Assembly: GCA_018716885.1 (NCBI GenBank)
Contig: DVJI01000012.1
Span: 78,050-142,049 of the forward strand
Source: Candidatus Enterousia intestinigallinarum
Lineage (GTDB): Bacteria > Pseudomonadota > Alphaproteobacteria > Rs-D84
Reading direction: 5' to 3'
Length of the DNA stretch: 64,000 nucleotides
Shown: piece after piece, positions 20,676 to 57,418 of the stretch
Position numbering within the stretch: the first letter of the stretch is position 1
How the letters are laid out: each line of letters opens with the position of its first letter
The notes under the pieces: model-generated
Told to the model about the DNA's origin: nothing
The model's database searches: none
The model's input: the letters and a program-made list of their open reading frames with translations, nothing else
Position numbers and translations under genes: made by a program

Positions 20676-21947
20676 TTATTGACGTATCAAAGATTGAATT
20701 GTTTGCGGTACGGAAACTGCCTGTTGCAGGGTAAATCCAGATGACCGCAATACGAACGGTGAAGTTGTACTAACACCATTTTTTACGCAATCGGAATATG
20801 CCTCTGCCTCGGCAATCATCCAGCATTGGTTGTTCAACGGCGTTTCCTTTGATTGACCGGTACCATACTGCATTGTGGTCTTATCATATCCGGCCGCCGC
20901 AACACAGTAATTTGTTGACGGGGAATCTGCGTCAAATATATATCCAATATCACACTGAATACAAACACCACCGTCCGGTGACGCACCACCACGCAGATTT
21001 TCCGTACACGGTTGGCACGTTCTGTCCGCCAATGACGGGAAAGCATAACCCTTTTCACGACATCTGTATGTATAGCATCCCATATTGTCGTTAAATTCCA
21101 ACATCATTGTCGCTTCATCAAATCCATTGCTGGGCCAGTTTGAACACGTCTGGGTCAGGGCACACGCTGTTTCATCAATGGCAACGCAATCATTACCCGC
21201 CGCATTGGCAGTATAACCATTTTTGCACAGCAATGTCGCTTCGCCCGCGGGCCAACCATCAATACCACCGCGTTTACTTTTCCACCCTTCGCGACGTGCA
21301 CGAATAACAAAAGGTTGTGCATACGCCCCGTGTCCACTTGCCAGCCAGTCAGACACCACCAAAATCATATCGTGTTCCTGGCCCTTATGCACCCCGCAGC
21401 CATTATATTGATTCCAATGAAACATTGCCACGGCTGATTCAACCTGTGGATCACGCGCCATAGTTAAACTGTTAAAATCATCACGACGAAACGGTGTTGA
21501 ATCACATCCAGTCGGGGCGGAATCCTGGCAACCTTCACCACCGAATCCCGGTTTGCACAACCAATAACAGGTCTGCGCACCCTGACCAGATTCCGCATAC
21601 AATGTCCAGGCATTACCTTTTTTCTTTTTTTCGGCATACACCGTGGTTGGACAGAACCGTGCGCCATTTTCATTTACTTCGCGCGCAACCAGCAACAACA
21701 CCCCCATATCGTCGCCCAACACACATTGCCCCGGGGAATTTGCATCAATGCCATAATTTCCCTTACAGGTATCCTTGTACCGGCCGATTGTCGCATTCCC
21801 AAAATTAGAACTCTGACAGTGGCTCATAACCGGATTTTTCCAACTGCCCAACAGCGCATTTATATTATTTTCACCACCGGCAATCGCAACACACGGAACA
21901 ACTTGTGCAATAAATAATGATAAAAGTATGTTTCGTATATTTCTCAT
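20676..21947 (-). CDS. Secreted cysteine-rich protein (424 aa), uncharacterised
   Basis: Signal peptide MRNIRNILLSLFIAQVVPCVAIAG with a ribosome-binding site upstream. About 30 Cys. No recognisable domains. Confidence 0.6.
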   Translation of the reverse strand: MRNIRNILLSLFIAQVVPCVAIAGGENNINALLGSWKNPVMSHCQSSNFGNATIGRYKDTCKGNYGIDANSPGQCVLGDDMGVLLLVAREVNENGARFCPTTVYAEKKKKGNAWTLYAESGQGAQTCYWLCKPGFGGEGCQDSAPTGCDSTPFRRDDFNSLTMARDPQVESAVAMFHWNQYNGCGVHKGQEHDMILVVSDWLASGHGAYAQPFVIRARREGWKSKRGGIDGWPAGEATLLCKNGYTANAAGNDCVAIDETACALTQTCSNWPSNGFDEATMMLEFNDNMGCYTYRCREKGYAFPSLADRTCQPCTENLRGGASPDGGVCIQCDIGYIFDADSPSTNYCVAAAGYDKTTMQYGTGQSKETPLNNQCWMIAEAEAYSDCVKNGVSTTSPFVLRSSGFTLQQAVSVPQTIQSLIRQ

Positions 21948-21960
21948 TTTAATTACCTGT

Positions 21961-24477
21961 TTATTCCGCAACATAACATACGGAGTTTTCATAATACCCG
22001 CCCATCAGTTCTTCGCACTGTGCACGATACCATTCATCGGTAAATGTGCATTCGTCACGCGACAAATCATATGATGCAACCGGTGTTTCCAATCCGTCAT
22101 TATAATCCAGGCAACGCAACATTGTCGTGTTTTCAACACAGCGTCCCCAATCGGTTACTTCATTACCACCATACACCTGTCTATAGAACCCAGACAGCAA
22201 AGTTCCTTCGCCACTGACACGACTGTCAACAACGTTAGTAACACTGTCATCATTATCCATCCAGTACCCATCCAATTCTTCACAAGTTTCCATCAACTGG
22301 TAATCCAGTTCTTCCTGAATATCATCTATTGCGCGTTTTATCTGATCACTAACCTGTGCGATAAATTCATCACCGGAACTGGTCGGATCCGCACAATTTT
22401 GACTTGCAAAGTTCTGAATAGATTCTTCCAATTCATCCGGACTCATATTACGGCAGTTCCACGGATAGCCCATTTCTCCATCATCCGGGGTGCACAAATC
22501 CGCCAGATAATTATCAATCGCGGTTTCGCAGCCCTCGGTAATACGAACGGTATCAACCGTGTCAACAAACGCCAACAAAGCGGTCAGACCACACCGGTCT
22601 GCGGCGGCAGCACCAGTTAAACTGCTGCTGTTATTACCGCTGCCGGCCACTAATCTGCCATTACCATCAAATTCACAACCGTCAGTGTTTCCATACAATG
22701 ACGCACAGGCGATAACCTGATCCTGGCACATTGAACGTGCAGCATACGCACTGATTGCACCGGTATATTGCGATGTAGTATTGTCAAAATCCTGCAACGC
22801 GCCAGTTTGCGTATCATAACATTCGGCCATAGTGCTGACACAGGACATTTTGACTTCTTCTATTTTTTCATCCTGTGCCTGTGCAATTTCAATCAGGGCC
22901 TGGCGCTTAAATTCTTCCCATACAATATCAGATATATCACGACAGGTATCTAATGCGCTTTCTGCAAACATACGTTTGTCGTCCAAAAATGTATTAAATT
23001 CCGAATTTGCACTCAATACATCACCAGCGTTACTGGCATTTACCCCCGGCAGTAATATCATATTCGTCAATTCAAACAAGCGCGGTGAATAAATCGGCTC
23101 ACCCGTACTTTGGTTGATATATGCCCCGGTATAGTCCAAACAACGTTGATAATTCGGACCACAGGCCGTATCCGCCTGAATAGCGGAACGAACATTTGCG
23201 ATACATTCGTTCACGTCGGCTGAATTATGTGATTGATATTCTTCCAGACGTGCTTCACGCAGGTATTTTTCCGCCGTACGTACAGTTTGTTCCAATCCCT
23301 CTTTTTGAGAATTTATATTTTTCTCATACAGGTTGCAATCCTGTGTAATCATAATGCTGTACGCGCTGCGCGCCATTGTCAAAACGGCATTATTCTCGCA
23401 AGAATCTGCGATTAAATCCAGACATTGTTTGCTGGCCTCGTTATACAAATCCTGGCCGGTCAGGGTGGACAAATCAACCCCCGTTGACGTATCAAATATA
23501 GAACTGCCAGAATCGCCCCAAATATCACCCAAGTCAGATGTAAAATCAACCGTCAACAGCCCCAGCGAAGTCCCCGACGAACTGGATGACGAAGACGATG
23601 AACTGTTTCCAGACAACAAATCACTGATTTCCGACAACATATTTGCCGCGGCACTGGTGTCACGTTTGATTGCATTTTCACCCTCGGTCGCGGTGTACAT
23701 TGCGGTAACTTCTTCGGCCGTCAGATTGACCGCCGTCAGATTATTATCCTGGAACTGCGCCAACAGGTTTAATGCCTGGTCAATCGCGTTTTCCGTATCA
23801 CGAAATTCATCATATCGGGCACTGCACACGCATCTGCGGTATGTGTCATTTGCATTTGCACAAAACTGATCCATACAGGTTGCATACGCTTCACGACATT
23901 CTGCATAACCGCCCCCAATGGCAGAAATATCTGTAAAGACCGCTGTTGCACGCGCGGTTGATGCACGCGATGCCCCAACAACGGAATTAGTCGATGCCGC
24001 ACGCGCCGTACTGGCCGGATTATGCGTTGCGCCACGCACGACATTTGACGATGCCGCACGCGATGTGGTTGCACTGCGTGCCGCAGTTGCTGATGTCGGA
24101 ATCGTCTGACGAATTGTGCCGCTACGTCCAGTGACAACATTTGTTGCCGATGGCATAATATTTGCCGAACGCGCCACAGTCGTGCTGGGGCGTGATGTCG
24201 CACTGCGCGACACGGTTGTTGCCGCCGCACGTCCTGAAACAGTTGACGTCGTTGTCGGTGTTGTACCCGACGTTGCAGCGGAATTTACACGCACAACGCG
24301 ACTGCTGTTTGCACGCGATGTTGCACCAGTGGCCGCGTCCGATGTCGCAACCGTAACAGACGCCGTGGACGAGCCACGTGGATTTGGTGCCTGTTCAGCC
24401 AACGCCGGCCAGCACAGTGCCAACACCGACCAAAAAGCAAGTGAATATTTGCAAAAATCAGCAACGCGTTTAATCAA
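21961..24477 (-). CDS. Large secreted protein (838 aa) with a Thr/Ala/Arg/Ser-rich N-terminal low-complexity region and a conserved Cys-containing core; paralog of 60824..63580
   Basis: TTG start followed by signal peptide (…SLAFWSVLALCWPALA). The core aligns block by block with the 918-aa protein, e.g. C.EAY..CMDQFC...D.YRRC.CS.R, ATEGENA, GPNYQRCLDYTGAYINQSTGEPI. Confidence 0.65.
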   Translation of the reverse strand: MIKRVADFCKYSLAFWSVLALCWPALAEQAPNPRGSSTASVTVATSDAATGATSRANSSRVVRVNSAATSGTTPTTTSTVSGRAAATTVSRSATSRPSTTVARSANIMPSATNVVTGRSGTIRQTIPTSATAARSATTSRAASSNVVRGATHNPASTARAASTNSVVGASRASTARATAVFTDISAIGGGYAECREAYATCMDQFCANANDTYRRCVCSARYDEFRDTENAIDQALNLLAQFQDNNLTAVNLTAEEVTAMYTATEGENAIKRDTSAAANMLSEISDLLSGNSSSSSSSSSSGTSLGLLTVDFTSDLGDIWGDSGSSIFDTSTGVDLSTLTGQDLYNEASKQCLDLIADSCENNAVLTMARSAYSIMITQDCNLYEKNINSQKEGLEQTVRTAEKYLREARLEEYQSHNSADVNECIANVRSAIQADTACGPNYQRCLDYTGAYINQSTGEPIYSPRLFELTNMILLPGVNASNAGDVLSANSEFNTFLDDKRMFAESALDTCRDISDIVWEEFKRQALIEIAQAQDEKIEEVKMSCVSTMAECYDTQTGALQDFDNTTSQYTGAISAYAARSMCQDQVIACASLYGNTDGCEFDGNGRLVAGSGNNSSSLTGAAAADRCGLTALLAFVDTVDTVRITEGCETAIDNYLADLCTPDDGEMGYPWNCRNMSPDELEESIQNFASQNCADPTSSGDEFIAQVSDQIKRAIDDIQEELDYQLMETCEELDGYWMDNDDSVTNVVDSRVSGEGTLLSGFYRQVYGGNEVTDWGRCVENTTMLRCLDYNDGLETPVASYDLSRDECTFTDEWYRAQCEELMGGYYENSVCYVAE

Positions 24478-24536
24478 ATTTTACATCTCTCTTTTTGCAT
24501 TTTATCATTTTTTGGATAGTTTAATCAACACCCAAT

Positions 24537-25193
24537 TTATTCAATGCAACAATTTACCGCATTTTTTACCCAGTCACCCAAACGACGCACCGCCGACTTA
24601 GATTCTGCAACAGTCGGCGCCTTTTCCGGCACGGTTGCAGATGTCGGCTTTTCCGCGTCAACCACACATTTTGCATATACGTCTGGCGCAATTTTTTTAA
24701 CCCCGGTCAAATCGATTAAATCCATATTGATGCCCCAGAACAAAGAATACAGTTCATATGACTTGTTAAACAAATCATATGCATCACGGGTATTACCAGC
24801 GGATAGCGCCTTGGTTCCAACTTCCATAACACGCATAGACGCAGCCAACAAATGCTTGGAAATGCACCATACTTCGCCATTTTCGGCCGATGATTTTTTA
24901 ACGATACGGCTCATTAAATCCTTGCGCATATCGCGAACAGTATTTATCAAATCGTAAAAACCGGTTTTTTGCGTTTTTGCGCCGCTGAAAAAGAAATGTT
25001 CTTCCAGTGAAATCAGGTTCATCAGCGCGATAGACAAATCCTGGTCTGATGATAAATCCAACGGATTTACTTTTTTAGATGCATCAACACGCGCCACCAT
25101 TTCTTCCAGTGTCATTTTCGCTGCGCGATTTGACTTTTTATTTGACGCCTTTGCGGCCGCTTGTTTTACCGTTTTTTCAGATTTTTTTGCCAT
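24537..25193 (-). CDS. Hypothetical cytoplasmic protein with a basic Lys/Ala-rich N-terminus
   Basis: ORF of about 218 aa on the same strand between the membrane-protein gene and the 838-aa gene. No homology recognised. Confidence 0.45.
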   Translation of the reverse strand: MAKKSEKTVKQAAAKASNKKSNRAAKMTLEEMVARVDASKKVNPLDLSSDQDLSIALMNLISLEEHFFFSGAKTQKTGFYDLINTVRDMRKDLMSRIVKKSSAENGEVWCISKHLLAASMRVMEVGTKALSAGNTRDAYDLFNKSYELYSLFWGINMDLIDLTGVKKIAPDVYAKCVVDAEKPTSATVPEKAPTVAESKSAVRRLGDWVKNAVNCCIE

Positions 25194-25219
25194 AATTTTC
25201 CTTCCTTTCAAAAATCAAA

Positions 25220-25729
25220 TTACATTGTAATCAGCCAGAACACGATTGTCGCCACAATCAAAAACGACAATGGAACAACAACCTTTTGAAATGCGAACTT
25301 TGCGTGACCGCCGTTTTCACGTTTAATTTTGATATACCAACGCGCGCCCAGATAAAACGCGATTGTGCCGACAATAATACCCAACAAGAACTTATCAATT
25401 CCCCACAGTGTCGCCGCGCCAAATTCCACACTGGGCAACGCATAAACCAACCCCAGCAGTCCGTAATAGAATACGAACGGCACAACAATCTGCCAGAAAG
25501 CACTTTTTACATTATGCTTTTTCAACCAGCCGGCCGTCCAGAAAAACAGCGACAATGTCAATCCACCGGCCCAGATTCCGGTAATAACATCATCAACCCC
25601 CAGCAAACGCATACCTTCCAACCCAGCGCCAACCGCAACCGTGCACACTGGACAAACCGCCATTGCCGCCGGCATAACCATCAACATCGCCAACGCCGCA
25701 AATCCCAACTGTGAAATAACTTTTTTCAT
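25220..25729 (-). CDS. Polytopic inner-membrane protein (169 aa) with a CPVC motif, uncharacterised
   Basis: About 4-5 hydrophobic helices. Starts 8 nt after the preceding gene on the same strand. Confidence 0.5.
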   Translation of the reverse strand: MKKVISQLGFAALAMLMVMPAAMAVCPVCTVAVGAGLEGMRLLGVDDVITGIWAGGLTLSLFFWTAGWLKKHNVKSAFWQIVVPFVFYYGLLGLVYALPSVEFGAATLWGIDKFLLGIIVGTIAFYLGARWYIKIKRENGGHAKFAFQKVVVPLSFLIVATIVFWLITM

Positions 25730-25789
25730 ACCTTTCCCCTGTATTTATATATCAGTTTTAATAATCGTACACAAATTCATATTATTCGG

Positions 25790-26635
25790 TCAATATGATT
25801 TTATCACGCCGCGCATATGTGCACTGCGTGCGCGTGAATTGTTTTCCAATTCCGTCGCATCTGGCGTCGCCGTATGAATCGGTGCAAAACGCGCCGGGGC
25901 AACCGTCGGCAACCGTGGATCGCCCGCCGGTGTTGTCCAGTCCCTAAATGTATTTTTTACAATTCTGTCTTCGATTGAATGAAATGTGACACAAACACAT
26001 TTGCCGCCGACAACTAATCGTTCTGGCACCGCCGTCAATGCACGCGTCAATTCGCCCATTTCATCATTTACCGCAATACGCAACGCCTGAAAAACTGGTG
26101 CCACATCACGCGGATTATGAATCAAATTCTTTAATTCAAATGTTGTTTTCGGGGCGGCGTCCTTGATTGCGCGGGCCAAAATAGAACTTTTTTTGACATC
26201 GCCGTAATCACGCAATATTTGCGCCAGTTCCCCAGCGGATAAATCACGTATTAAATCAGCAGCCGACGCCCCCACACCAGACATACGCATATCCAACGGC
26301 CCGTCACCCCGGAAAGAAAACCCCCGTGCGGCAACATCTATCTGCATCGAAGAAATGCCCAAATCAAACACTATTGCATCATACGTGCCGGTCATTTCGG
26401 CAATATCAGAAAAAGGGCGGGGCACAAATTCAAATCGACCGGCAAATTCAGCGCCCAAACTTTCCGCATCCGCTGCAACGTTCGGGTCGCGGTCAAATGC
26501 AATCACACGCGCCCCACGCATTAAAAACGCACGCGAATACCCACCCGCACCAAAAGTTGCATCAATTATAGTGCGTCCATCAATATCGCCCAGTGCGTCA
26601 ATAACAGCATCTAATAATACGGGTATGTGTTTCAT
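25790..26635 (-). CDS. rsmH: 16S rRNA (cytosine1402-N4)-methyltransferase
   Basis: MKHIPVLLDAV...DATFGAGGYSRAFL...DLGISSMQ are RsmH/MraW signatures. Confidence 0.85.
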   Translation of the reverse strand: MKHIPVLLDAVIDALGDIDGRTIIDATFGAGGYSRAFLMRGARVIAFDRDPNVAADAESLGAEFAGRFEFVPRPFSDIAEMTGTYDAIVFDLGISSMQIDVAARGFSFRGDGPLDMRMSGVGASAADLIRDLSAGELAQILRDYGDVKKSSILARAIKDAAPKTTFELKNLIHNPRDVAPVFQALRIAVNDEMGELTRALTAVPERLVVGGKCVCVTFHSIEDRIVKNTFRDWTTPAGDPRLPTVAPARFAPIHTATPDATELENNSRARSAHMRGVIKSY

Positions 26636-35700: not shown

Positions 35701-36369
35701 ATGAACAAAACAGTTTTAATTATTGATGATGACGATATGTTGCGCAAAACGCTGGCACGCGGATTGCGCGACAATGGTTTTAATGTTCTGACCGCCCCCA
35801 GTGCCGAAGAGGGCGATAAAATCCTGGCCCACGTTGTTGCGGACGCAATCGTACTGGACAGAATGATGGCGGGACGCGACGGATTGACATTTCTGCGCGA
35901 CCTGCGTGCGCGGGGCGTTATGATTCCGGTAATAATGCTTACCGCAATGTCAGGTGCGGAAAATGCGATTGACGGCCTGGCGGGCGGGGCAAACGACTAT
36001 CTGGCAAAGCCATTTCAGTTACGCGAACTGATTCTGCGACTGAACAATATAATCAAAAACAACGAATTGCCGGACGACCGATTACCGGGCGGTCTGATAT
36101 TTACCGACGAAGAATTTTTTATAACAGACCCACAAAAACCGGGCAGTGCACCCCGTATTTTGCCATTATCCGGCGAAGAAAAGAAACTGTTGCGGGGGCT
36201 GACAACGCCATTTGGAAACATAACACCGGCAACACCGATGGTTGCAAAACGCTTGCGCAATAAATTAAATGTTGTATTATCGGATATAGACATAATTACA
36301 ATACGCGGTCGCGGGTATAAACTGGTTCATATCCGCCCGAGCAGTAACAACAATGGTGATGAAAAATGA
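35701..36369 (+). CDS. OmpR-family two-component response regulator
   Basis: Receiver domain with the phospho-acceptor Asp (DDDD...VLDRMM) and a winged-helix C-terminal domain (IRGRGYKL). Confidence 0.8.
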   Translation: MNKTVLIIDDDDMLRKTLARGLRDNGFNVLTAPSAEEGDKILAHVVADAIVLDRMMAGRDGLTFLRDLRARGVMIPVIMLTAMSGAENAIDGLAGGANDYLAKPFQLRELILRLNNIIKNNELPDDRLPGGLIFTDEEFFITDPQKPGSAPRILPLSGEEKKLLRGLTTPFGNITPATPMVAKRLRNKLNVVLSDIDIITIRGRGYKLVHIRPSSNNNGDEK

Positions 36370-37646
36370 GATTGATACCACGCAGTTTTTTATGGCGCAC
36401 AATTTTGATGATTCTGATACCCCTGATTATAGCCCAGGTTATCATCGCCAACGTATTTTTTGGCAACCATTGGGCACGCGTCCACGCAACACTGGCACGC
36501 AGTTTGGCGGTTGAAATCGTCACAATGATGAACTTTATTGATGACAACAATACAGACACCGCCAAAACAATGGCGCGCGATATGGGCATAAACGTTTCAA
36601 TAAATTCAAAATTAAACCGCCCCAGCAAAAATGATAATGAATCACGTGAAGCGGGATTGTTGGCCAGCGAACTGTCCAACCGCCTGAAACGGCCGGCTCA
36701 GATATATATAGACAAAGGCAAACGCCTGGTATTTGTTGACGTGCCGACAAACGACGGAAAAATCGCGACGTTTGGCACATCGCTGTATCGCATTTATTCC
36801 ACCAGTACTGAAGTATTTATTATATGGTTGATTGGTTCAATATTGATTGTATCGATACTGATTACGCCGTTCATCATTATGCACACGCGCAGTATCAGAC
36901 GCATTGCCAAGGCAGCTGGTCGATTTGGCCGCGGCTTGGACGCCCCTGGATTCCAACCGACCGGTTCCAAAGAAATACGCGAAGCCGCTGCTGCAATGAT
37001 TACGATGAAGGAACGCCTGAATCGCTATAACCGTACACGTACGGATATGTTGAACGCGGTCAGCCACGATTTGAAAACACCACTAACACGTATGCGTCTG
37101 GCCGTGGAAACGGGATCCGCATCTCAAGAAGATTTGTTACAGGACATCGACCGTATGACAGAAATGGTGAACGGATATCTGGCGTTTGCACGTGGTGAAA
37201 TTCCGGAAATAGAACAGGCAACTGAACTGCCCGCTATGCTGTTGCGTATTGCGCGCGACGCCGCCCCGGACAAGGATATTCAAACCGAATTTCCGGACGA
37301 ACCGGCACAGTTCTATGCACGTCCGATGGCATTGGCACGCGCATTTAGCAATATTATTGAAAATGCGGCGCGTTATGCCAAAAAGACAATTCGCATAACC
37401 GAACACGATACTCCCGACCAGGTAGTGGTTATTATCGAAGACGACGGCCCCGGCATTCCAGACGATAAAAAACGCGATGCAATGCGTCCGTTTGTACGTC
37501 TTGATGAATCACGCAGTGAAAAAACCGGCGGAACCGGCCTGGGGTTATCAATTGCACAGACCGCGATTGAAAACCACGGTGGGCAGTTATTCTTGGAAAA
37601 CAGCGATCTGGGCGGGCTAAAGGTTCGTATAGTATTACCAATATAA
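36366..37646 (+). CDS. Two-component sensor histidine kinase (EnvZ-like)
   Basis: Two transmembrane segments, a HAMP-like linker, the H-box HDLKTPLTRMRL and a G-box GGTGLGLSIAQ. Its start overlaps the response-regulator stop. Confidence 0.8.
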   Translation: MRLIPRSFLWRTILMILIPLIIAQVIIANVFFGNHWARVHATLARSLAVEIVTMMNFIDDNNTDTAKTMARDMGINVSINSKLNRPSKNDNESREAGLLASELSNRLKRPAQIYIDKGKRLVFVDVPTNDGKIATFGTSLYRIYSTSTEVFIIWLIGSILIVSILITPFIIMHTRSIRRIAKAAGRFGRGLDAPGFQPTGSKEIREAAAAMITMKERLNRYNRTRTDMLNAVSHDLKTPLTRMRLAVETGSASQEDLLQDIDRMTEMVNGYLAFARGEIPEIEQATELPAMLLRIARDAAPDKDIQTEFPDEPAQFYARPMALARAFSNIIENAARYAKKTIRITEHDTPDQVVVIIEDDGPGIPDDKKRDAMRPFVRLDESRSEKTGGTGLGLSIAQTAIENHGGQLFLENSDLGGLKVRIVLPI

Positions 37647-47740: not shown

Positions 47741-48169
47741 ATGGCATTACAGACAACTTCGTTCAAAATTGCACGCTATATATTGCTGGCATTGGTTTTG
47801 GTGCTGTGCATTGGGATAATAACGTGGACACTTATTGCACGCAATCGCGCTGACCTGTCAACATCCGGCACCGTTGAAAATGTTATACGCATAACAAACA
47901 CCGACCCGTGCGTGCAAAGCGTAAATAACGCCGTTTCACAAATGTGGGCATATAATGCCGCCAGCATTCCCCAGAAATACCGTGATATAGAATCACAATA
48001 CGTAAATGAAAAAATTACAACACGTATAAACGGTTCCTGTAATGATGTAAGATTTGTATGCCGCCCGGGGCAAATTCGGCGCGACTGTGATCCGTGTGCG
48101 CAGGGGTCGGCACGTCAGTTTGCGATGGAACAACAAATATCCGATATGATTGCCGAACAGTGCAAATAA
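47741..48169 (+). CDS. Membrane-anchored Cys-containing hypothetical protein (142 aa)
   Basis: N-terminal transmembrane anchor and a terminator downstream. No homology recognised. Confidence 0.4.
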   Translation: MALQTTSFKIARYILLALVLVLCIGIITWTLIARNRADLSTSGTVENVIRITNTDPCVQSVNNAVSQMWAYNAASIPQKYRDIESQYVNEKITTRINGSCNDVRFVCRPGQIRRDCDPCAQGSARQFAMEQQISDMIAEQCK

Positions 48170-48867: not shown

Positions 48868-49347
48868 TTAATTGCTGTAATAGCAATCTGCAGTGTACGT
48901 ATATGTTCCACTTGTGTCAGTTCCGGTTGTTCCAGACGGCAAATAACACGACGTAATCACAGTTGAACCGGCCACAGACGAACCACTGTTTGGACAGCAC
49001 GTACAACCAGATGAACCATTTATGGTTCTTCCATAATATCCCGCAGCACATCGGTATTGAATTGATGAAGTACACTTTGTTGATGTTGAACAATATCTAT
49101 ATGTACGACGTTCATAACCCGTTGCGTACGCCGTCCACGCTGACGGCGAACAGTTGGATGCTGTACACGTCGTACCACCACCAGACATAACACAGATTCC
49201 ACCGGGGCAATCCGTGTCCCTCGAGCACGCCAGTCCATCGGAAGGGCCGCCATCACAAATTCCACGTATACCAGCAACAGCAAACGTCGTACTCGATATA
49301 AATATGGGTATCGCAATAATTATAGTGGGTAAAATAAAATATTTCAT
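48868..49347 (-). CDS. Small secreted Cys-rich protein (159 aa), lineage-specific family
   Basis: Signal peptide MKYFILPTIIIAIPIFISSTTFA, 20 Cys, ribosome-binding site (AGGAG). Its C-terminal third recurs at 40494..40637. Confidence 0.6.
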   Translation of the reverse strand: MKYFILPTIIIAIPIFISSTTFAVAGIRGICDGGPSDGLACSRDTDCPGGICVMSGGGTTCTASNCSPSAWTAYATGYERRTYRYCSTSTKCTSSIQYRCAAGYYGRTINGSSGCTCCPNSGSSVAGSTVITSCYLPSGTTGTDTSGTYTYTADCYYSN

Positions 49348-49480: not shown

Positions 49481-49631
49481 TTGTTTTTCGTCGTAATACT
49501 AAAACGGGCGCATTTTTGCGCGCCACAGGTTTATATTCCGACGCCTATGCACGGGTAGTCACACCCCATTGACGGAACACCCGTCAACATTTATATGTTA
49601 TCGCATAGTATTTGAATATTCAAGGCAAAAT

Positions 49632-49660
49632 AAAAACCGCATTTCGCGGTTTTTATTTTT
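49632..49660. terminator. Intrinsic terminator after the 796-aa gene (aaaaaccgcatttcgcggtttttattttt)
   Basis: Hairpin plus T-runs. Confidence 0.65.
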
Positions 49661-49661
49661 C

Positions 49662-52052
49662 TTACAGCAACGGCGGGAAACAATCGCCACCGGCTTCTGG
49701 GCAACAGTTGAATCCCATATCACCCATATCGGTATAAACTTCACCAGTGCAGCACCCGTTCACGTCCGGCGCCGTACCGTCTGGACAGGTCGGCAAATCT
49801 TCAACCGTATCCGACCATACCACGGACGTTACAGATTGCGGAACATATCCGTCATCGGACGCCACCGATGCTTGGGATGAATTTAATCCGGATTGATTTT
49901 CCACCGGCGCGCTGACAATCGACGGACCGACTGTATCAACGGCCTGCATATTATTTTGACGCAATGTTTCGGTATCGTAATTTTCATCTGCGACAAACAT
50001 ATTTTCATTTTGTGAAACGTTATATGCCGGCTTGCTGGCCAAAATTTCTTCTTCAGTTGGAATTTCCGGCTTTGGTTCAGTGCTTGAAACTGGTGTGGTT
50101 ACGGCGACAGATTCAACAACCACATCAGCTGCTGGCACTTGTTCAGCAACCGTTTCTGGTGTATCAACAGGTTCCGGTTCTGGTTCTGTCACTGGTTCTG
50201 GTTCCGGAATTTCCACGGGAGCCGGTTCTTCCACAACAGGTTCCGGTTCGGGTTCTTCCACAGGAACGGGCACTGTTATTTGCGTTTCAACAGTTTCAAC
50301 TGCGGCCGGCGTTTCCAATTCCGGTATAAACGGACTGTCCGCATCAGTTAAATCATCTGCCTGTGCGGTTTCCGTTGTGGTTGGCACTGTTGCGGTTAAA
50401 TCAGGTGCATTTTCACTGGTGTTCTTTTGATACAACCACAATGTAAATATAGACAACCCAATCAACAACACCAACATTATATAATAAACTAATGTAGGTT
50501 TACGCGGTGCTGGATTACTTGGCGCCACATTACCAGTAATCGGCGACACAGGACGCGGCGCGGACGCAGCAGCCGAAACAGTTGACGCCGGCGGGACAGG
50601 GCGCGCCCCTGCATCTACCGCTGGCGACGCCGTGGCGGGCGCCTGGGGTTCTGGATTTTGTGCCGCTGGCAGCGGTTCAGATTCTGCATCTGGTACAACT
50701 GGCGAAATATTCGGCACCAGTTCAGAATCTAATTGTTGGGCAGAATTATCCGCGGCCGTCGGCATATTCACGGACGTAATTGTATCCAAAACCGGTGTTG
50801 TTGCTTTTTCATCTGATACACGCGGTGCTTCTTCACCAGTTACAGGTCTGACATTTATTGGCGCGTTGTCCGCACGCTTATCAGACGGTGGTGTGAACGA
50901 CAACGGTTTGTCATCAATAATATTTTCATACACTTCCGGATTGTCGGTAACCGGACTTGTTTCATCAGACACCGGACTGGAAACACCAAACTCAATCGGC
51001 TTAAACGCGATTTCTTCGTCCAATATTTCCGGGTCTTTATCAAACAGTGGTTTTACCGCATCATTATTTGTTTCATCGGCCATTATTTCCGCCTTTGGTT
51101 CTTCATTTATATTTTCTGTAAATTCCACGCGTTCTTCTTCATCAACAGGCATACGTGCAACCACATCATCATCAGACGCCACGGCCGCAACACTGGTATG
51201 TGCAGGCGCACCAACCGCAGTTGATTCAACAGGCGCAGAATCACCGGCCACGGATTCTTTGTCATCCGTATCAAAATCCACATCCGTATCATAAGACACA
51301 TTGTATGTTGTTGTAACCGATGGAATAGCATCGTGTGCCTGCGGGGCATCGACATCACGCACAACAGCAACCGGTGCACGCGCCAAAATTTCACGCGCAA
51401 TTTGTGCATCTTCGTCCGCAACAATCAGGCGCCGCTGTGCATTATCCAGACGTTTTTTTGCACGACGCAGTTTTTCATTTGTTGCATCAATCTGCGCATC
51501 CGTACGCAATATTTTAGACGCCGACTTTTTTGTCGGTTCACGTCCGACCTGTTTTTTCTGTTGCGACAACTTGGCCCGCAACTGGCGTAATTTCGTTTGC
51601 AGTTCGGCAATGCTTTCACGTGTTCTGACGATTGTTTCGCGTGCAGTTTCGGCATTTGCATCTGCAACGGCCAAACGTTCCGTCGCTGCGCGCCGGACGG
51701 AATCTTCACGAAAAGCAGTCAGTGCCGTCAGCGCCGCCGTCAAATCATCGCCATTTTCATATGCGTTGATTAAATTGTCGTATTCAGCCAAGCCGCTGTA
51801 TTCAATATCTAACTTTTGATATTTATTATTTTTCTTTGGGCGCACAGTTTCCAAATCAACGTTATAATCATTGGCCAAAATGTCATCCCATTTGCGGTCA
51901 CCAACCGGATTTATCACCAAAAGAGCATTTGGCTTGCGATCGTCCAGCGTGCTGTCCAAAACAAACACCAACTTATCATCGGCATCATAATACGCACGCA
52001 ACACGTTTCCGGCGATATTGTATTCCCTGAACGTCAAAACAGATTTATCCAT
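49662..52052 (-). CDS. Single-transmembrane protein (796 aa): cytoplasmic coiled-coil N-domain, one transmembrane helix, periplasmic acidic Pro/Glu-rich repeats and a Cys-rich C-terminal knot
   Basis: Ribosome-binding site (GAGAGGGAAAA) then ATG. Heptad-like region LRQLRAKLSQQKK...LRRAKKRLDNAQRRL. Transmembrane helix LVYYIMLVLLIGLSIFTLWLY. Repeat run EPEPEPVVEEPAPVEIPEPEPVTEPEPEPV. C-terminus CPDGTAPDVNGCCTGEVYTDMGDMGFNCCPEAGGDCF. Confidence 0.6.
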   Translation of the reverse strand: MDKSVLTFREYNIAGNVLRAYYDADDKLVFVLDSTLDDRKPNALLVINPVGDRKWDDILANDYNVDLETVRPKKNNKYQKLDIEYSGLAEYDNLINAYENGDDLTAALTALTAFREDSVRRAATERLAVADANAETARETIVRTRESIAELQTKLRQLRAKLSQQKKQVGREPTKKSASKILRTDAQIDATNEKLRRAKKRLDNAQRRLIVADEDAQIAREILARAPVAVVRDVDAPQAHDAIPSVTTTYNVSYDTDVDFDTDDKESVAGDSAPVESTAVGAPAHTSVAAVASDDDVVARMPVDEEERVEFTENINEEPKAEIMADETNNDAVKPLFDKDPEILDEEIAFKPIEFGVSSPVSDETSPVTDNPEVYENIIDDKPLSFTPPSDKRADNAPINVRPVTGEEAPRVSDEKATTPVLDTITSVNMPTAADNSAQQLDSELVPNISPVVPDAESEPLPAAQNPEPQAPATASPAVDAGARPVPPASTVSAAASAPRPVSPITGNVAPSNPAPRKPTLVYYIMLVLLIGLSIFTLWLYQKNTSENAPDLTATVPTTTETAQADDLTDADSPFIPELETPAAVETVETQITVPVPVEEPEPEPVVEEPAPVEIPEPEPVTEPEPEPVDTPETVAEQVPAADVVVESVAVTTPVSSTEPKPEIPTEEEILASKPAYNVSQNENMFVADENYDTETLRQNNMQAVDTVGPSIVSAPVENQSGLNSSQASVASDDGYVPQSVTSVVWSDTVEDLPTCPDGTAPDVNGCCTGEVYTDMGDMGFNCCPEAGGDCFPPLL

Positions 52053-52092
52053 TTTTCCCTCTCACTTTACTCGCGTCCAACGATAGTGCGCG

Positions 52093-52665
52093 TTATGCCT
52101 GCTTTTTCTTTGGTGGCGTGAACTGATACGCCTGTTTACAGTGCTCGTAACAATACGGCTTGCCAACAAACACCGGTGCCCCACAGAAATGAAAACCTTC
52201 GGAATCTGGGTCACCTATTGGCCAACGACACTGGTTTGGTTTCAAATTTGCCATTTCCAAAGAATGCTGAATAATCCGCTGATGCATCGCCAGATTTTTC
52301 GTCATTGATTTGGCACCGGTGGCCGGGGACGAAGTTTTCTTTTCCACCGGTTTTACCGGTTTAGTGACTGACTTTTTAGCAGCGGCCCCCGTACGCGATG
52401 TGGTCGCCAGCTTTTTTGCAGCACCACGTGTCGCCGTGGTCTTTTTAGCAGTTGACTTAGCAGCCGATTTTTTCGCTTCTGCTTTTTTTGGTTTATCCGC
52501 CGCCGCAACACCACCGGCCTTGGAATTCCAGCCCAAACGGTTCAATTTGCCAACAACGGCATTTTTACTCATCCCCAGACGTTTACCAATTTCAGCCGTG
52601 GACAGCCCCTTGCCGGTCAGCGCCTTTAACTTTTTAAGTGTTGCGTTATCCCAACCTTTACTCAT
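52093..52665 (-). CDS. gcrA: Cell-cycle transcriptional regulator GcrA
   Basis: N-terminus MSKGWDNATLKKLKALTGKGLSTAEIGKRLGMSKNAVVGKLNRLGW and C-terminus ...CRWPIGDPDSEGFHFCGA...GKPYCYEHCKQAYQ are the conserved GcrA signature. Confidence 0.85.
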   Translation of the reverse strand: MSKGWDNATLKKLKALTGKGLSTAEIGKRLGMSKNAVVGKLNRLGWNSKAGGVAAADKPKKAEAKKSAAKSTAKKTTATRGAAKKLATTSRTGAAAKKSVTKPVKPVEKKTSSPATGAKSMTKNLAMHQRIIQHSLEMANLKPNQCRWPIGDPDSEGFHFCGAPVFVGKPYCYEHCKQAYQFTPPKKKQA

Positions 52666-52738
52666 TTCAAAAAATCCTTGTTATATATAACGTCATAATT
52701 GTAACATAATTTCGAATCGAAAGGCAAGGGGGAAAAAT

Positions 52739-53215
52739 ATGATTTACAATATCTTTTTCATTGTGCTGTTGGCGGTGGCGGCCATATGCGCGTGGCGTAT
52801 TTGCGTTGCCGATTGGCGCCGTCGAATAATACCAGATGCGTATTTGTTCCCGCTGCTGTTGATTGGATTGATTATAACGCACTTTTTCCCGTGGCCGACA
52901 TCCCCCGCCGACGGGGTAATTGCGGCAATATTCGGATATGCACTGGCCGCGTGTGTTGGGTTTATTTTTGACGTTCGTCAACGTCACCAGAATAAACCGA
53001 ACGTCGCGCCTGCACCAATCGGTATGGGCGATATAAAACTGATGGCGGCGGGCGGAATATGGTTGGGGACAGTTGGACTAGCCGTGGCACTGATTGTCGC
53101 GTGCGTGGCCGGAATAGTATGGGGATTGCGCCGGAAACAAAAATATATCCCGTTTGCACCGTTCTTTATTATTGGTGGAATTTTGTCTTTAATTACAATG
53201 GTGTTTTTGATATAA
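52739..53215 (+). CDS. cpaA: Type IV prepilin peptidase, CpaA/TadV-like (A24 family)
   Basis: 158-aa polytopic membrane protein with CpaA-like Asp-containing motifs (ADWRRRIIPD...GMGDIKLMAAGG). Confidence 0.6.
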   Translation: MIYNIFFIVLLAVAAICAWRICVADWRRRIIPDAYLFPLLLIGLIITHFFPWPTSPADGVIAAIFGYALAACVGFIFDVRQRHQNKPNVAPAPIGMGDIKLMAAGGIWLGTVGLAVALIVACVAGIVWGLRRKQKYIPFAPFFIIGGILSLITMVFLI

Positions 53216-53235: not shown

Positions 53236-54144
53236 ATGGACAGAGAAATGAAATCGAAAATATTATCCATAATCGGTGCCGTATTCGGTCTGGGGGCAAT
53301 GCCGGCAATGGCAACGACATTTCCGACAACCACAACGCCTTTTTCACAATATGGCCAAATTCAAAATGTTCAAAATTATTCATCAAATCCATTTTGGAAC
53401 CCGAACAGCCCGTATAACCAGCGTATGCCCGTACCAGTTTATGTTCAGGGTACCGATGTGGATACAAACGATTGTCAAACGGTTGTTGGGGCATTGGTGT
53501 CGGCATATTGTGCATCGCGCAACAACTGTGTTGGGATTGACGTTGACGACGCGCGCCCGACGTTGACCGTACAGTTGGCCAGTTTGCCTAACCATAACTA
53601 TGTCACACCGTGTGCTGGATATATCGACACGGAATTCAGCAAATATGTATCCCAAAATGCACTGGCCGTACCGACGGGCGGGGCGGTTGCATTTCCAACG
53701 GCAACAACACCAAACACAAACACGAACAGCCAACCGGCGGAATTTCAAAACCCATATCAGCAGCAATTACCAACCTGGAACGGCGAACCGTGGATGCAGG
53801 ATATGCTTGAACGCAAACAGGAATTGGAACAACTGCAATCTGCGACCACTGGTGGCGATACAACATTGGCACGTGCTGACTTTCCGTCATCGGCATCAGA
53901 TTTGACATTTACCCAGCGGATTCAAAACGACGCGGCGGGCTATGCACCATACACGGGCAAATCTGCATACCGTACAATCAACATAGAAAGTGAAGAGGCA
54001 TACCAACAGCGTACAAATGCATATTGCTCATCTGAAATTGCCAAACTTACAACAATTGATACAGACCTGGCAACACTATACAAATGTAAAAACGACGGAA
54101 CTCCGTTCAACGATTGCAAAAAATTATTAAAGGGAATTTATTAA
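53236..54144 (+). CDS. Secreted Gln/Asn/Pro/Thr-rich protein with Cys pairs (302 aa), uncharacterised
   Basis: Signal peptide MKSKILSIIGAVFGLGAMPAMA. First of four consecutive exported-protein genes after cpaA. Confidence 0.5.
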   Translation: MDREMKSKILSIIGAVFGLGAMPAMATTFPTTTTPFSQYGQIQNVQNYSSNPFWNPNSPYNQRMPVPVYVQGTDVDTNDCQTVVGALVSAYCASRNNCVGIDVDDARPTLTVQLASLPNHNYVTPCAGYIDTEFSKYVSQNALAVPTGGAVAFPTATTPNTNTNSQPAEFQNPYQQQLPTWNGEPWMQDMLERKQELEQLQSATTGGDTTLARADFPSSASDLTFTQRIQNDAAGYAPYTGKSAYRTINIESEEAYQQRTNAYCSSEIAKLTTIDTDLATLYKCKNDGTPFNDCKKLLKGIY

Positions 54145-54146
54145 AA

Positions 54147-55244
54147 ATGCGCAAAAATTTGGCCGTCTTTTTTGCCACAGTTGCATTGTTATTCGTTGCA
54201 GATGATGCAAATGCTTTGATGTGGAACGACCCTGGCGTAACCCCGGTGCAGAGTATTTCTGATCACCGTTGGCGTGACGCGAACACCGGTCGCCTGATAA
54301 ATGTTACGGGTATGCCAAATGCAACCCCCACACCAACACCAACGCCAACTCCCGCACCTGCACCTGCACCAACACCAACCCCCACCCCAACTCCTTCTCC
54401 GGCACCGACCCCAAGTCCTGCACCAAGTTCGTCTGGCACTACGACGCCACGCACAAATTGGGGCAGTATGTCAAAGGCTGCAAGGGCGGGCGCCGCACTG
54501 GGTATTGTCGGTGGCGCAGCCGGCGTATATGCATCAACCGCGGGCCAGGGCGAGCACAGTGGTTGGAATGTTGCCGGTGGCGCGGCCAGTGGTGCAATTG
54601 CCGGCGCATCAATTGGCAGTATATTCCCAGTAATCGGTACTGGTATCGGGGCAGCTGCTGGCGCGGTTATCGGTGGTTTAATATCTGGTTCCCAATTGTT
54701 TTCGGAAACAGATTGTCTTTATGACCCCGTGACAGGTATCTTTACTTGCTGTAATACGGTATTCAATCAAGGGGAACGCCAGGCAAATATCGGCGATTAT
54801 ATGTTTTGTGGCGTGGAACAGGATGGTACCAATGTTATCGCCGCACCGGGTGTCCGCCAATGTTTACAGGGAAAAATGAAAGACGAATCCACTTGGTCCG
54901 ATACCGCCGCGGGGTGGTGGGACGGAATGTGGGTTGATGATTTTTGGCAACCAGAATGCGTGGCTCGCTATTGTACGGAATCCGGCGCGCCGGCCGAAGG
55001 CATAGAATCATATATCGAATACATACCAGATACAACAAACTATTGTTGGAACTGGGATTGCGTTTCCGGCTATACGCGCAGTGGTAACACCTGTATCGCC
55101 GCATCAACAAACGAACCGGTCAACCCATACACAACACCAGAAAGCCCAAATGCAAACCCATACGATGTATTGATACAACAACTGCAGCAGTACCGCACAA
55201 ATATTATCAGAATGTGCGGATATATGTTGGGTACAAATAAATAA
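54147..55244 (+). CDS. Secreted protein with a Pro-Thr/Pro-Ala linker, a glycine-zipper segment and a Cys-rich C-terminal domain (about 365 aa)
   Basis: Signal peptide MRKNLAVFFATVALLFVADDANA. Linker PTPTPTPTPAPAPAPTPTPTPTPSPAPTPSPAPSS. Glycine-zipper GAALGIVGGAAG...GAIAGASIGS...GTGIGAAAGAVIGGLISG. 18 Cys in the C-terminal 170 aa. The ORF track extends the frame upstream to a TTG at 54114. Confidence 0.5.
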   Translation: MRKNLAVFFATVALLFVADDANALMWNDPGVTPVQSISDHRWRDANTGRLINVTGMPNATPTPTPTPTPAPAPAPTPTPTPTPSPAPTPSPAPSSSGTTTPRTNWGSMSKAARAGAALGIVGGAAGVYASTAGQGEHSGWNVAGGAASGAIAGASIGSIFPVIGTGIGAAAGAVIGGLISGSQLFSETDCLYDPVTGIFTCCNTVFNQGERQANIGDYMFCGVEQDGTNVIAAPGVRQCLQGKMKDESTWSDTAAGWWDGMWVDDFWQPECVARYCTESGAPAEGIESYIEYIPDTTNYCWNWDCVSGYTRSGNTCIAASTNEPVNPYTTPESPNANPYDVLIQQLQQYRTNIIRMCGYMLGTNK

Positions 55245-55251
55245 AATTTTT

Positions 55252-57036
55252 ATGCAAATTCGTATAATTGCATCTTTGGTAATTGCACTTTGCGCCACAC
55301 GTGTGGCGCTTTGTGCAGATGCACAAAACATCCCCGCGTCTGCATCAACAAACACAACTTCAATTATTGGCGACGGAACATCGGATTTTGGAACCGATTT
55401 TATACCGGCGTCTGAACTGCTGGCGCGCACCCCGGACGAAACACAGTGCGCAACGGCCGCGTTCGCGAATGCGCTGCGTGAAAACGCCGGTGCTGTTTCT
55501 GAAACAGATTCCGAAACGGATATACAAAAGTGGATATACCAGACCTTTAATAACGCCGATGTGTTACGTGCTGTATTGTCCTGTCCGGAAATTGCGTCAC
55601 GTGCAGACGACGAAACAATTAAATTTCTGCCGATAACATATACTTTTCCAGCGGGTCGTGAAATTGTTGTAAATTACGAAACACAGCCCAAAATATTAAA
55701 ACAGCGTGTAACACTGTCAGAAAAGCGTTCATTGCCGTCATCCGATCCAAACCCACGGGTCGGCGCACCTGATGACGATGCAATCTGGACAAATACCGAT
55801 CCCGCCTGGTACGGGATTATGGTGGTACAATCCGGAACACTGGATAACTTTGTCGGTCCAAACAAGAATAACACGATATCGCTAAAATATATAAATGATA
55901 ATATCGATACGTTATTTCCCCGGGGCAATCAGTGCACTGGTAAATCGGCACTGACAAATGATAACACTATGATAAATCGTGCAATGCGCGAAACGGTTGC
56001 ACTGGACGATGACACAAATGACTACTATGTTGCGGGTGACGCCAACCTACAATGGATTTCATATTTGGAAATCGGATTGGACGTTGCGATAACCGTTGCA
56101 ACAATGGGCGGTGGCACGGTTGTTCTGGGTGCGACCAAGGCCGCCCGCGCATCACGAACATTAAAGAATTTAAGTACCACATTGCGCACATTGCGCCAAA
56201 CGGATTCTGTGCGTGACTATGTACGTATCAGTCAACAGTATGCACGTGCCGCCGAAGAACTGCGCAATATTGACCGTGTGGCGGACGCGGCTGGTTACGC
56301 CCGCAAATCGGCCGAGGTCGAAAACTATGCCCGCACAATGCGCAGTTTGGAAAGTACCGACGACAATGTGCGCCAATATCGCCAGGCATCAGAAACATTT
56401 TCATCATTAAATCAATATCGACGTACACTGCGCGGATGGCGGATTCCGCAACGTGGCAATATTATTGCACGTACCTGGCGTGCGGTGCGCGCGGCAAATA
56501 CCGGCGCACAACAACTGCGCAGCGCGGCCCGTGTCGCGCGCAGCAGTACGCTGTCCGGACGTGTTCGCGACTGGCTGTTTCAATCAACATTGGCAAATGT
56601 CGGGGCACTGGCGCGTCTGGAACGTGCCGGCGGATTTATATACGGCGCGCTGAAGTTTGTTGGCGGTATGTATGACTGGACGGAAACAAGCACTGGTGAT
56701 TTCACCAGTGGTATAGAATTTAAGCCGTTGACATTATTGTCCGCCGACGATTTACAGGGTCAAGAAAATGTTATAAACCACGGAATGTGGTTGATGTGGG
56801 CGGGCGACGCATACACTGCCGCCGATGACGACGCCGCGTTTTTACAGGCAATGGATTTTGCAAACAAATTCCACTTTAACCTGGACACAATTCAGGCGGA
56901 CGAAAACAATCACGCGTGCGACGTTGATATTTATGTTGTGCGCCCGATTATACGAAACCCCGGATCGGATAATCCAGAATTATACTATCTGGTAATGAAC
57001 GATGAACCGTGGACGACACACAACACGGACGAATAA
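55252..57036 (+). CDS. Large secreted protein (594 aa) with short Arg/Tyr-containing internal repeats, uncharacterised
   Basis: Signal peptide MQIRIIASLVIALCATRVALCA. Repeats of about 25 aa of the form ..VRDYVRISQQYARAAEELRNID / ..AGYARKSAEVENYARTMRSLESTD / DNVRQYRQASETFSSLNQYRR. Confidence 0.5.
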   Translation: MQIRIIASLVIALCATRVALCADAQNIPASASTNTTSIIGDGTSDFGTDFIPASELLARTPDETQCATAAFANALRENAGAVSETDSETDIQKWIYQTFNNADVLRAVLSCPEIASRADDETIKFLPITYTFPAGREIVVNYETQPKILKQRVTLSEKRSLPSSDPNPRVGAPDDDAIWTNTDPAWYGIMVVQSGTLDNFVGPNKNNTISLKYINDNIDTLFPRGNQCTGKSALTNDNTMINRAMRETVALDDDTNDYYVAGDANLQWISYLEIGLDVAITVATMGGGTVVLGATKAARASRTLKNLSTTLRTLRQTDSVRDYVRISQQYARAAEELRNIDRVADAAGYARKSAEVENYARTMRSLESTDDNVRQYRQASETFSSLNQYRRTLRGWRIPQRGNIIARTWRAVRAANTGAQQLRSAARVARSSTLSGRVRDWLFQSTLANVGALARLERAGGFIYGALKFVGGMYDWTETSTGDFTSGIEFKPLTLLSADDLQGQENVINHGMWLMWAGDAYTAADDDAAFLQAMDFANKFHFNLDTIQADENNHACDVDIYVVRPIIRNPGSDNPELYYLVMNDEPWTTHNTDE

Positions 57037-57097: not shown

Positions 57098-57418
57098 ATG
57101 TTAAAGAAACTATTATTAGCACTGTGTCTGGTCGGCGTTTCCGTCGGCGGTGCAAACGCTTATCAGTTATTGTCATCCAAAGAATTGGGCAAAAACGATG
57201 CCAAGAATCAAACGGTTGTTGTAAAATGCACAACCGATACGGGCAAAACGTCAAGTCAGACGTGTACACTGCGCCGCTATGCAAAGTGCACCGGCACTGG
57301 CACTAACAAGACCTGTAACGGTTGGCAGGCGTGGCAGGATTTACGCACCCCGAACAAAAAATATTCTGATTGGCGCAGTGCGGCATCCGCCTGTTGCCGT
57401 GCCAAGGGATTGCGTTAA
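57098..57418 (+). CDS. Small secreted Cys-rich protein (106 aa)
   Basis: Ribosome-binding site (aaaggggg) before MLKKLLLALCLVGVSVGGANA. 8 Cys. Terminator downstream. Confidence 0.5.
   Translation: MLKKLLLALCLVGVSVGGANAYQLLSSKELGKNDAKNQTVVVKCTTDTGKTSSQTCTLRRYAKCTGTGTNKTCNGWQAWQDLRTPNKKYSDWRSAASACCRAKGLR

Follow-up and report, generated by a model that had tools for sequence, protein, structure and literature searches.

A bitopic membrane protein family encoded with gcrA in 'Candidatus Enterousia' and the order Rs-D84, and its possible role as an envelope-spanning scaffold

The window analysed here is a 64,000-nt stretch of 'Candidatus Enterousia intestinigallinarum' (Alphaproteobacteria, order Rs-D84; contig DVJI01000012.1, positions 78,050 to 142,049 of the forward strand). 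Its reverse strand carries gcrA and, directly downstream, a gene for a 796-amino-acid (aa) protein with one transmembrane (TM) helix, hereafter protein X (Table 1). An earlier sequence-only reading of the window had described this open reading frame (ORF), its single TM helix and its place behind gcrA; the ORF and its TM helix are present as described, and the gene upstream on the same strand matches PF07750. GcrA is a core alphaproteobacterial cell-cycle regulator. As the window protein scored 77 bits in the NCBIfam GcrA equivalog model, the cutoff of which is 280 bits, it was regarded as a divergent GcrA. GcrA proteins of the Rs-D84 clade carry a histone-H1-like Lys/Ala-rich linker between conserved N- and C-terminal domains, with 19 Lys and 19 Ala in 84 residues and a net charge of +19. 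As the 40-nt spacer between gcrA and X contains a ribosome-binding site (RBS) and no terminator, and a strong intrinsic terminator follows X, the two genes are taken to be a bicistronic unit.

Table 1. Features of the gcrA-X locus and blocks of protein X. Positions are those of the window; residue numbers here and throughout the text are those of window protein X unless another protein is named.
Feature	Position	Strand	Residues	Remarks
X ORF including stop codon	49662..52052	-	1-796	796 aa, ATG start
gcrA, first gene of the operon	52093..52665	-		190 aa; PF07750, E=1.1e-28, GcrA residues 5-187
gcrA-X spacer	52053..52092	-		40 nt, RBS GAGAGGG; no terminator, no stable structure
Intrinsic terminator directly after X stop	49627..49659	-		hairpin + U-run; -16.6 kcal/mol, z=-4.6
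Promoter-like element of gcrA-X	52698..52727	-		TTGCCT, 18 nt, extended -10 TGtTACAAT
GAATC in promoter spacer	52714..52718			with flanks CGAATCG, 52713..52719
Head, globular alpha/beta	51744..52052	-	1-103	invariant RKWDD (53-57); basic loop RPKKxNKYQK (71-80)
Antiparallel helical hairpin	51381..51740	-	105-224	helix 105-168, tip 169-174, helix 175-224; predicted structure and invariant columns
Acidic cytoplasmic tether	50499..51380	-	225-518	presumed disordered, variable length; from conservation/gap profile, segment lengths and charge
Linker 1			226-315	8-111 aa across family
Motif A	50985..51107	-	316-356	EPKAExMAD..VKPLFDKDPEILDEEIAFKPIEFG; kept in divergent members
Motif PLSFTPP	50886..50906	-	383-389	conservation
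Motif PVLDTI	50778..50795	-	420-425	conservation
Juxtamembrane motif RPVSPITG	50532..50555	-	500-507	R500, P501, S503, P504 invariant
Single TM helix	50427..50498	-	519-542	Y523, L527, L530, L538, W539, Y541, Q542 invariant
Periplasmic membrane-proximal segment and acidic Pro/Glu spacer	50076..50426	-	543-659	
Membrane-proximal periplasmic motifs			549-576	VPDLTA, SPFI
Acidic Pro/Glu spacer			577-659	
Three (E/I)PEPEP repeats	50169..50255	-	600-628	over imperfect GGTTCY hexamer repeat
Periplasmic motif B	49968..50075	-	660-695	IPTEEEILASKPAYNVSQNEnMFVA..YDTE
Variable linker			696-755	8-123 aa across family
C-terminal 6-Cys module	49665..49787	-	756-796	41 aa; CPDGxAPDxNGCCxGExYTDMGDxGFNCCPxxGGDCFPPL
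A24 (GxGD) prepilin-peptidase-like membrane protease	52739..53215	+		divergent from gcrA; PF01478, 1.8e-16
Secreted proteins p302, p376, p594	53236..57036	+		p302, 53236-54144; p376, 54114-55244; p594, 55252-57036

A relative of X is encoded at 280 loci in GTDB species genomes. Locus comparisons were performed on the best 80 of these ('Candidatus Enterousia' and similar gut metagenome-assembled genomes (MAGs), including a closed 958,618-bp genome, OZ007020.1), against which the window neighbour proteins were searched by tblastn. In 79 of these 80, X is directly preceded by gcrA in the same orientation; the remaining locus breaks off at a contig end and is uninformative. The same arrangement was found in two much more divergent members, one from a termite-gut MAG and one from an ENA assembly. 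The conserved gcrA synteny that the sequence-only reading had asked about is therefore present, and among the loci compared no close relative was found that retains gcrA while lacking the gene. Co-conserved with the pair is the gene for an A24-type membrane protease, transcribed divergently from gcrA: 79 of the 80 loci carry it, as do both divergent ones. The downstream side of X is variable, with acpS, corA, adk and rpsA found in only 32-39 of the 80 loci.

The A24-gcrA intergenic region is 73 bp long, and in it the RBS of the A24 gene abuts the -35 element of gcrA. The promoter-like element of gcrA-X is of the sigma70 type, and its spacer contains a GANTC site. Among L001-L082, the start codons of both A24 and gcrA could be placed in 76 loci, and GANTC occurs in the intergenic region of all 76, against about 15 expected from shuffling. 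Its position is essentially fixed at about -53 from the gcrA ATG, between the -35 and the extended -10. Across loci the site reads CGAWTCG, with A or T as the central base and with G-A-N-T-C and the flanking C...G invariant. In the form CGATTCG (or its complement) it fits YGAKTCK, the sequence at which Caulobacter GcrA, an activator of sigma70 promoters, binds methylated DNA best (PMC4647560). The targets of GcrA in Caulobacter include podJ, pleC, divL, cckA and ctrA as well as division and segregation genes (PMC4647560). As the invariant CGAWTCG fits the sequence preferred by GcrA, the site suggests that the gcrA-X operon is under GcrA/CcrM-type control, including autoregulation of gcrA; under such control, X would be co-expressed with GcrA. 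The invariant promoter site strengthens the link between X and the cell-cycle circuit, which the sequence-only reading had drawn from gene position. In the window as a whole, CGAWTCG occurs 7 times (14.3 +/- 3.9 expected), a mild depletion that is too weak to build on.

A word-indexed protein search returned at least 684 full-length relatives of X (660-870 aa), all of them unnamed or 'hypothetical' and all from MAGs of uncultured Alphaproteobacteria. An exhaustive hidden Markov model search of 1.84 billion cluster representatives gave 450 matches at E<=1e-3, of which 343 reached E<=1e-10 and 212 reached E<=1e-30, and the homologues encoded at the 280 GTDB loci are full-length, with identities of 36-99%. 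These sequences show that the X gene is real and that X is a member of a large family, so far unnamed, of 'Candidatus Enterousia' and the order Rs-D84. No family matched X at significance in scans of Pfam (E<=0.1), NCBIfam, PADLOC and PHROGs, and sub-threshold matches to HAUS5, SMC, Rad50, JetC and tape-measure proteins were rejected as compositional, reflecting coiled-coil and low-complexity sequence. A profile of 70 homologues searched against all PDB sequences generated no significant hit, the best having E=0.65. The earlier statement that no homology was recognised thus stands for named families and falls for the unnamed one, and in Pfam, NCBIfam, PADLOC, PHROG and the PDB sequences no unrelated family lays claim to X.

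Genomes of the order Rs-D84 are smaller than 1 Mb (0.75-1.0 Mb) and lack flagella, the tricarboxylic acid cycle and respiration (PMC12306168), and an obligately symbiotic or parasitic life, with metabolites obtained from other cells, is predicted for the bacteria (PMC12306168). As a 2.4-kb gene has been retained in genomes of 0.75-1.0 Mb, its conservation across 280 species argues for an important function of X.

X contains one hydrophobic segment, with 518 residues on its N-terminal side and 254 on its C-terminal side. Among 117 homologues, 113 likewise have a single hydrophobic segment; the length on the N-terminal side ranges from 424 to 605 residues, and signal peptides are absent. The six Cys residues of X (756, 767/768, 783/784 and 791) all follow the TM helix. 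Exactly six Cys are found on this side in 116 of the 117 homologues, and nearly none on the N-terminal side (0.04 per protein). Because Cys is distributed so unevenly and a signal peptide is missing, X is taken to be a bitopic inner-membrane protein with its N-terminus in the cytoplasm and its C-terminus in the periplasm (N-in/C-out); the positive-inside bias of the TM flanks is weak (2.1 vs 1.7 Lys + Arg). The net charge is -35 for the cytoplasmic part, +9 for residues 101-230 within it, and -49 for the part after the TM helix (residues 546-796, with 3 Lys/Arg vs 52 Asp/Glu). The anatomy described before, with a basic helical region in the cytoplasm, a single TM helix, an acidic Pro-Glu periplasmic part and a Cys-rich C-terminus, was confirmed.

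In alignments of 25, 70 and 117 family members, conserved blocks of X alternate with hypervariable linkers. Conservation concentrates in the head, the tip and second helix of the hairpin, motif A, the TM helix, motif B and the Cys module. Residues 1-232 were modelled by AlphaFold2 with the family alignment at a predicted local distance difference test (pLDDT) score of 93.3 and a predicted template modelling score of 0.82. In this model, a four- to five-stranded alpha/beta head is packed on a long antiparallel hairpin formed by the helices 105-168 and 175-224. According to this prediction, the 'coiled coil' of the sequence-only reading folds back on itself as an intramolecular hairpin of antiparallel helices; its basic, helical character was upheld. 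The hairpin is net basic, with conserved Lys or Arg at positions 175, 180, 194, 197, 199, 201, 208 and 220 and many invariant Lys/Arg in the second helix, and its tip is conserved as GREPTK (169-174; GREPTKxSAxKILR in extended form). The acidic tether of about 290 residues that connects the hairpin to the membrane carries four short linear motifs that are conserved. Among all 10-residue blocks of X, the basic loop of the head (RPKKxNKYQK) and the acidic-hydrophobic core of motif A (341-350) are conserved best, each with a column identity of 0.96. The TM helix is unusually conserved, as strongly as the head.

On the periplasmic side, the Pro/Glu spacer is 52-107 aa long in the 117 homologues (median 77 aa), with 22% Pro and a charge of -0.23 per residue. 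In X it contains EPEPEP at 600-605, IPEPEP at 615-620 and EPEPEP at 623-628. The sequence-only reading had described exact (E/V)PEPEP repeats encoded by DNA repeats, and exactness at the DNA level was overstated: Tandem Repeats Finder reported GGTTCT in 5.8 copies at 50170-50204 with 75% matches, that is, a short and imperfect DNA repeat. Variation of the PEPEP copy number between strains had been proposed for comparison, and none was seen against a 99%-identical homologue, which differs by eight substitutions and no insertion or deletion; between species, the length of the spacer varies over the range given above. The C-terminal module does contain six Cys with CC pairs, and the term 'knot' applied to it earlier was a guess from Cys spacing. 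The pattern C-x(6-14)-CC-x(8-18)-CC-x(3-9)-C was matched within the window by X only. Divergent members of the family keep the head, the hairpin tip, motif A, the TM helix and the acidic spacer, and end in one or two Cys modules or in an acidic Tyr-rich tail. As the C-terminus varies among them, the invariant core of X comprises the cytoplasmic part plus the TM helix. The end of the protein is modular across the family (P0245, P0253, P0255, P0143 and P0220, from other samples): the 6-Cys module is single in 116 of the 117 closer homologues and duplicated in P0245, and an acidic Tyr-rich tail (e.g. ...DYYYETDF) replaces it in several lineages.

No structural neighbour in the PDB was informative for the predicted head, and those of the hairpin were generic: prefoldin, IpaB, HP0958, ESCRT-III and PspA. 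Identity to prefoldin, HP0958/CT398 and ESCRT-III/PspA is 5-16%, and no Pfam match to PspA (PspA_IM30), Snf7 or prefoldin was obtained; the similarity in the model is that of a generic structural element only. The family is unannotated and its head lacks a recognisable fold relative; bitopic envelope scaffolds with coiled-coil and disordered parts are, as a kind, familiar. A mobile-element origin, raised by a 'Microviridae' label on one cluster member, was rejected, as head and hairpin together gave no tblastn match in 50,697 phage and 72,556 plasmid records.

We tentatively favour, at somewhat less than an even chance, that X is a cell-cycle-co-expressed, envelope-spanning scaffold or hub acting in division, segregation or polarity. 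X would be made together with GcrA, coupled to methylation and the cell cycle and tied to the GcrA phase, and would span from the cytoplasm to the periplasm as a scaffold or tether. Its head and short motifs would recruit cytoplasmic partners from the division, chromosome or polarity machinery. Alternatively, the partner could be X itself, with the basic head binding the acidic motif: since conservation peaks in the basic loop and in the acidic-hydrophobic core of motif A, it is reasonable to suppose that X may self-associate head to tail. The conserved TM helix would contact a membrane partner, and the end module, disulfide-bonded, would be held by the Pro/Glu rod at the level of the peptidoglycan or the outer membrane. 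A spacer of the median 77 aa, if extended, would reach roughly 20-25 nm, probably enough to cross a periplasm, as in TonB. Docking-type motifs set in variable linkers, together with a sequence-specific TM helix, resemble the pattern of a multi-site scaffold, as in PodJ, HubP, ZipA and MapZ.

Several observations weigh against a scaffold role under GcrA control. The gcrA-X operon linkage fits a direct role in GcrA regulation equally well. Plain GANTC occurs in the window at expectation (159 vs 166 +/- 11), so that a Caulobacter-like genome-wide signature is not evident, and CcrM was not found within the 64-kb window. The C-terminal Cys module, which would be the periplasmic end of the scaffold, is not universal in the family. 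In Pfam, NCBIfam and the PDB sequences, X matches none of the known division or polarity proteins, and neither the head, for want of an informative structural neighbour, nor the hairpin, with its generic ones, points to a division or polarity function.

Comparison with characterised hubs gave likeness in layout together with clear differences in domains. PodJ, too, is bitopic and N-in; its coiled-coil region is cytoplasmic, its linker disordered and its C-terminal part periplasmic, with a single TM helix. Its gene is part of the GcrA regulon in Caulobacter (PMC4647560); X lies in the gcrA operon with its CGAWTCG promoter. In contrast to PodJ, X has no periplasmic Sel1/TPR repeats or peptidoglycan-binding domain (Pfam E<=0.1, NCBIfam), and has one intramolecular hairpin rather than several coiled-coil segments, together with a distinct alpha/beta head. 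No Pfam or NCBIfam naming model matches X, and none of the libraries used detected a sequence relationship to PodJ. Like HubP/FimV, X is anchored in the membrane, very acidic and largely disordered, and it carries conserved short motifs, as a recruitment hub would. The topology of HubP is opposite, with a periplasmic N-terminal LysM and a cytoplasmic acidic region, and neither LysM nor the FimV C-terminal motif was found in X with Pfam. ZipA combines a globular cytoplasmic domain on a long flexible Pro-rich linker with a single TM helix, but in inverted order, with the TM helix N-terminal and the globular domain C-terminal, and X has in addition a substantial periplasmic part. No Pfam or NCBIfam match to ZipA_C, to helix-turn-helix plus DUF4115 (RodZ), to SPOR (FtsN) or to TolA_C was obtained in X. 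By this comparison, X would be a functional analogue of bitopic hubs such as PodJ, HubP and ZipA, and not a homologue.

The operon linkage to gcrA could also mean that X is a membrane-anchored regulator of GcrA, the head or tether of which holds GcrA or GcrA-sigma70 while an envelope signal sets its availability, with release by proteolysis, conceivably via the adjacent GxGD-type A24 intramembrane protease. We consider this unlikely. The strict pairing of gcrA and X mirrors sigma/anti-sigma operons, and RseA/RsiW-type anti-sigma factors likewise combine an N-terminal cytoplasmic fold, one TM helix and a periplasmic C-terminus with a gene directly downstream of that of a transcription factor; X matches in layout the RseA-type factors, which have an N-in cytoplasmic binding domain, one TM helix and a periplasmic part. 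Nevertheless, no anti-sigma domain (zf-HC2, RskA, RseA) was found in X with Pfam or NCBIfam, and its head lies about 420 residues from the TM helix, far beyond the distance in anti-sigma factors, the tether being about 400 residues longer; the putative partner would be a sigma70 cofactor, GcrA, and not a sigma factor. The linker of GcrA (net +19) and the cytoplasmic part of X (net -35) are complementary in charge, which is no evidence of binding. The A24 gene is divergently co-conserved at the counts given above, and no Flp/type IV prepilin motif was found in any frame of the 64-kb window, though pilin genes may sit elsewhere in the genome. A conserved ...SPITG motif stands 12 residues before the TM helix of X, but its juxtamembrane Gly is not directly before the hydrophobic segment, unlike in prepilin cleavage sites. 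A more specific form of this proposal, that gcrA, X and the A24 protease constitute one signalling module, in which X tethers basic GcrA or another cell-cycle factor and is cleaved near the juxtamembrane motif or TM helix to release it, is the least probable of the possibilities considered here. If this were true, GcrA would gain a new layer of regulation, an enzyme of the prepilin-peptidase family would act on a substrate other than a pilin, and in these Alphaproteobacteria with minimal genomes the state of the envelope would be coupled to the epigenetic cell-cycle circuit of GcrA and CcrM.

Two further readings assign the main role to the periplasmic side. The periplasmic spacer of TonB is a Glu-Pro rod, and the conserved TM helices of TonB and TolA dock to ExbBD and TolQR, respectively. 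X might accordingly be viewed as a TonB/TolA-type trans-envelope tether or energy-coupling rod that reaches from the inner membrane to the peptidoglycan or outer membrane, with an accessory cytoplasmic part. Its acidic (E/V)PEPEP-rich spacer of 52-107 aa, which resembles the TonB rod and lies between a TM helix conserved as is typical for TonB/TolA and a small C-terminal module, is consistent with such a role. The TM helix, however, follows 518 cytoplasmic residues instead of forming an N-terminal signal anchor, conservation of X is highest in its cytoplasmic parts, and its C-terminal module can be replaced. Neither TonB_C (PF03544) nor the TolA domain TolA_C, nor any PDB sequence match, was obtained; the rod has no Lys-Pro half, and the conserved neighbourhood contains no exbBD or tolQR. 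This reading is therefore given a small probability, below that of the GcrA regulator. We regard it as still more doubtful that X is part of a surface or attachment apparatus for host or prey cells together with the secreted, Cys-rich proteins p302, p376 and p594. Such an apparatus would suit obligate symbionts or parasites drawing metabolites from other cells (PMC12306168), several secreted, Cys-rich, clade-specific neighbours are co-conserved with X (p302 in 76 and p376 and p594 in 70 of the 80 loci), and the C-terminal module differs between lineages, as for an interaction surface. On the other hand, an inner-membrane anchor and only about 210 periplasmic residues make surface exposure in a diderm unlikely, and it is the cytoplasmic two-thirds of X that are most conserved. 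The presence of p302/p594 does not track the type of C-terminus of X, and five loci (L065, L068, L070, L073 and L080) match X only to residues 549-576 yet keep p302/p594. The probability left by the scaffold reading and these alternatives falls to something else.

To our knowledge, no dedicated membrane partner encoded with GcrA has been described, and a literature search returned nothing relevant on a membrane protein downstream of gcrA. An order with genomes smaller than 1 Mb keeps a 2.4-kb gene tied to gcrA under a promoter with a GcrA-type methylation site, and this suggests a connection of cell-cycle circuit and envelope that is specific to the lineage and probably important. The X family offers a defined unannotated family, a head without a PDB neighbour and sharply conserved short motifs usable as baits, and X is a testable example of cell-cycle control in minimal, partner-dependent bacteria. 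If its function proves to be generic scaffolding, the value of the family would lie mainly in annotating about 450 'hypothetical protein' clusters.

Whether p302, p376 and p594 belong to the same functional unit as gcrA-X is uncertain; none of the three matched a Pfam or NCBIfam family. p376 has a signal peptide, a (TP)n spacer, a Gly-zipper-like segment and a Cys-rich C-terminus. The secreted block extends to position 57418 on the same (forward) strand and includes a 138-aa Cys-containing protein without a Pfam or NCBIfam family. Further secreted or membrane Cys-rich proteins of 142 aa (47741-48169, forward strand) and 159 aa (48868-49347, reverse strand) are encoded in the window, as is a 1268-aa Cys-rich protein (10391-14197, reverse strand) with a Listeria-Bacteroides repeat and an ephrin-receptor-like Cys-rich match. 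These suggest an unusually disulfide-rich exported proteome for a tiny-genome anaerobic gut bacterium.

In most bacteria, ftsL, ftsI and murE follow mraW. In the window, rsmH/mraW (25790-26635, reverse strand) is followed by ORFs of 224, 838 and 438 aa without a Pfam or NCBIfam match, and the division and cell-wall cluster at 20676-26635 may have been rearranged or have diverged strongly. Few signalling systems can be recognised in the window; one of them is the pair of a response regulator and a HAMP/HisKA histidine kinase encoded at 35701-37646 on the forward strand.

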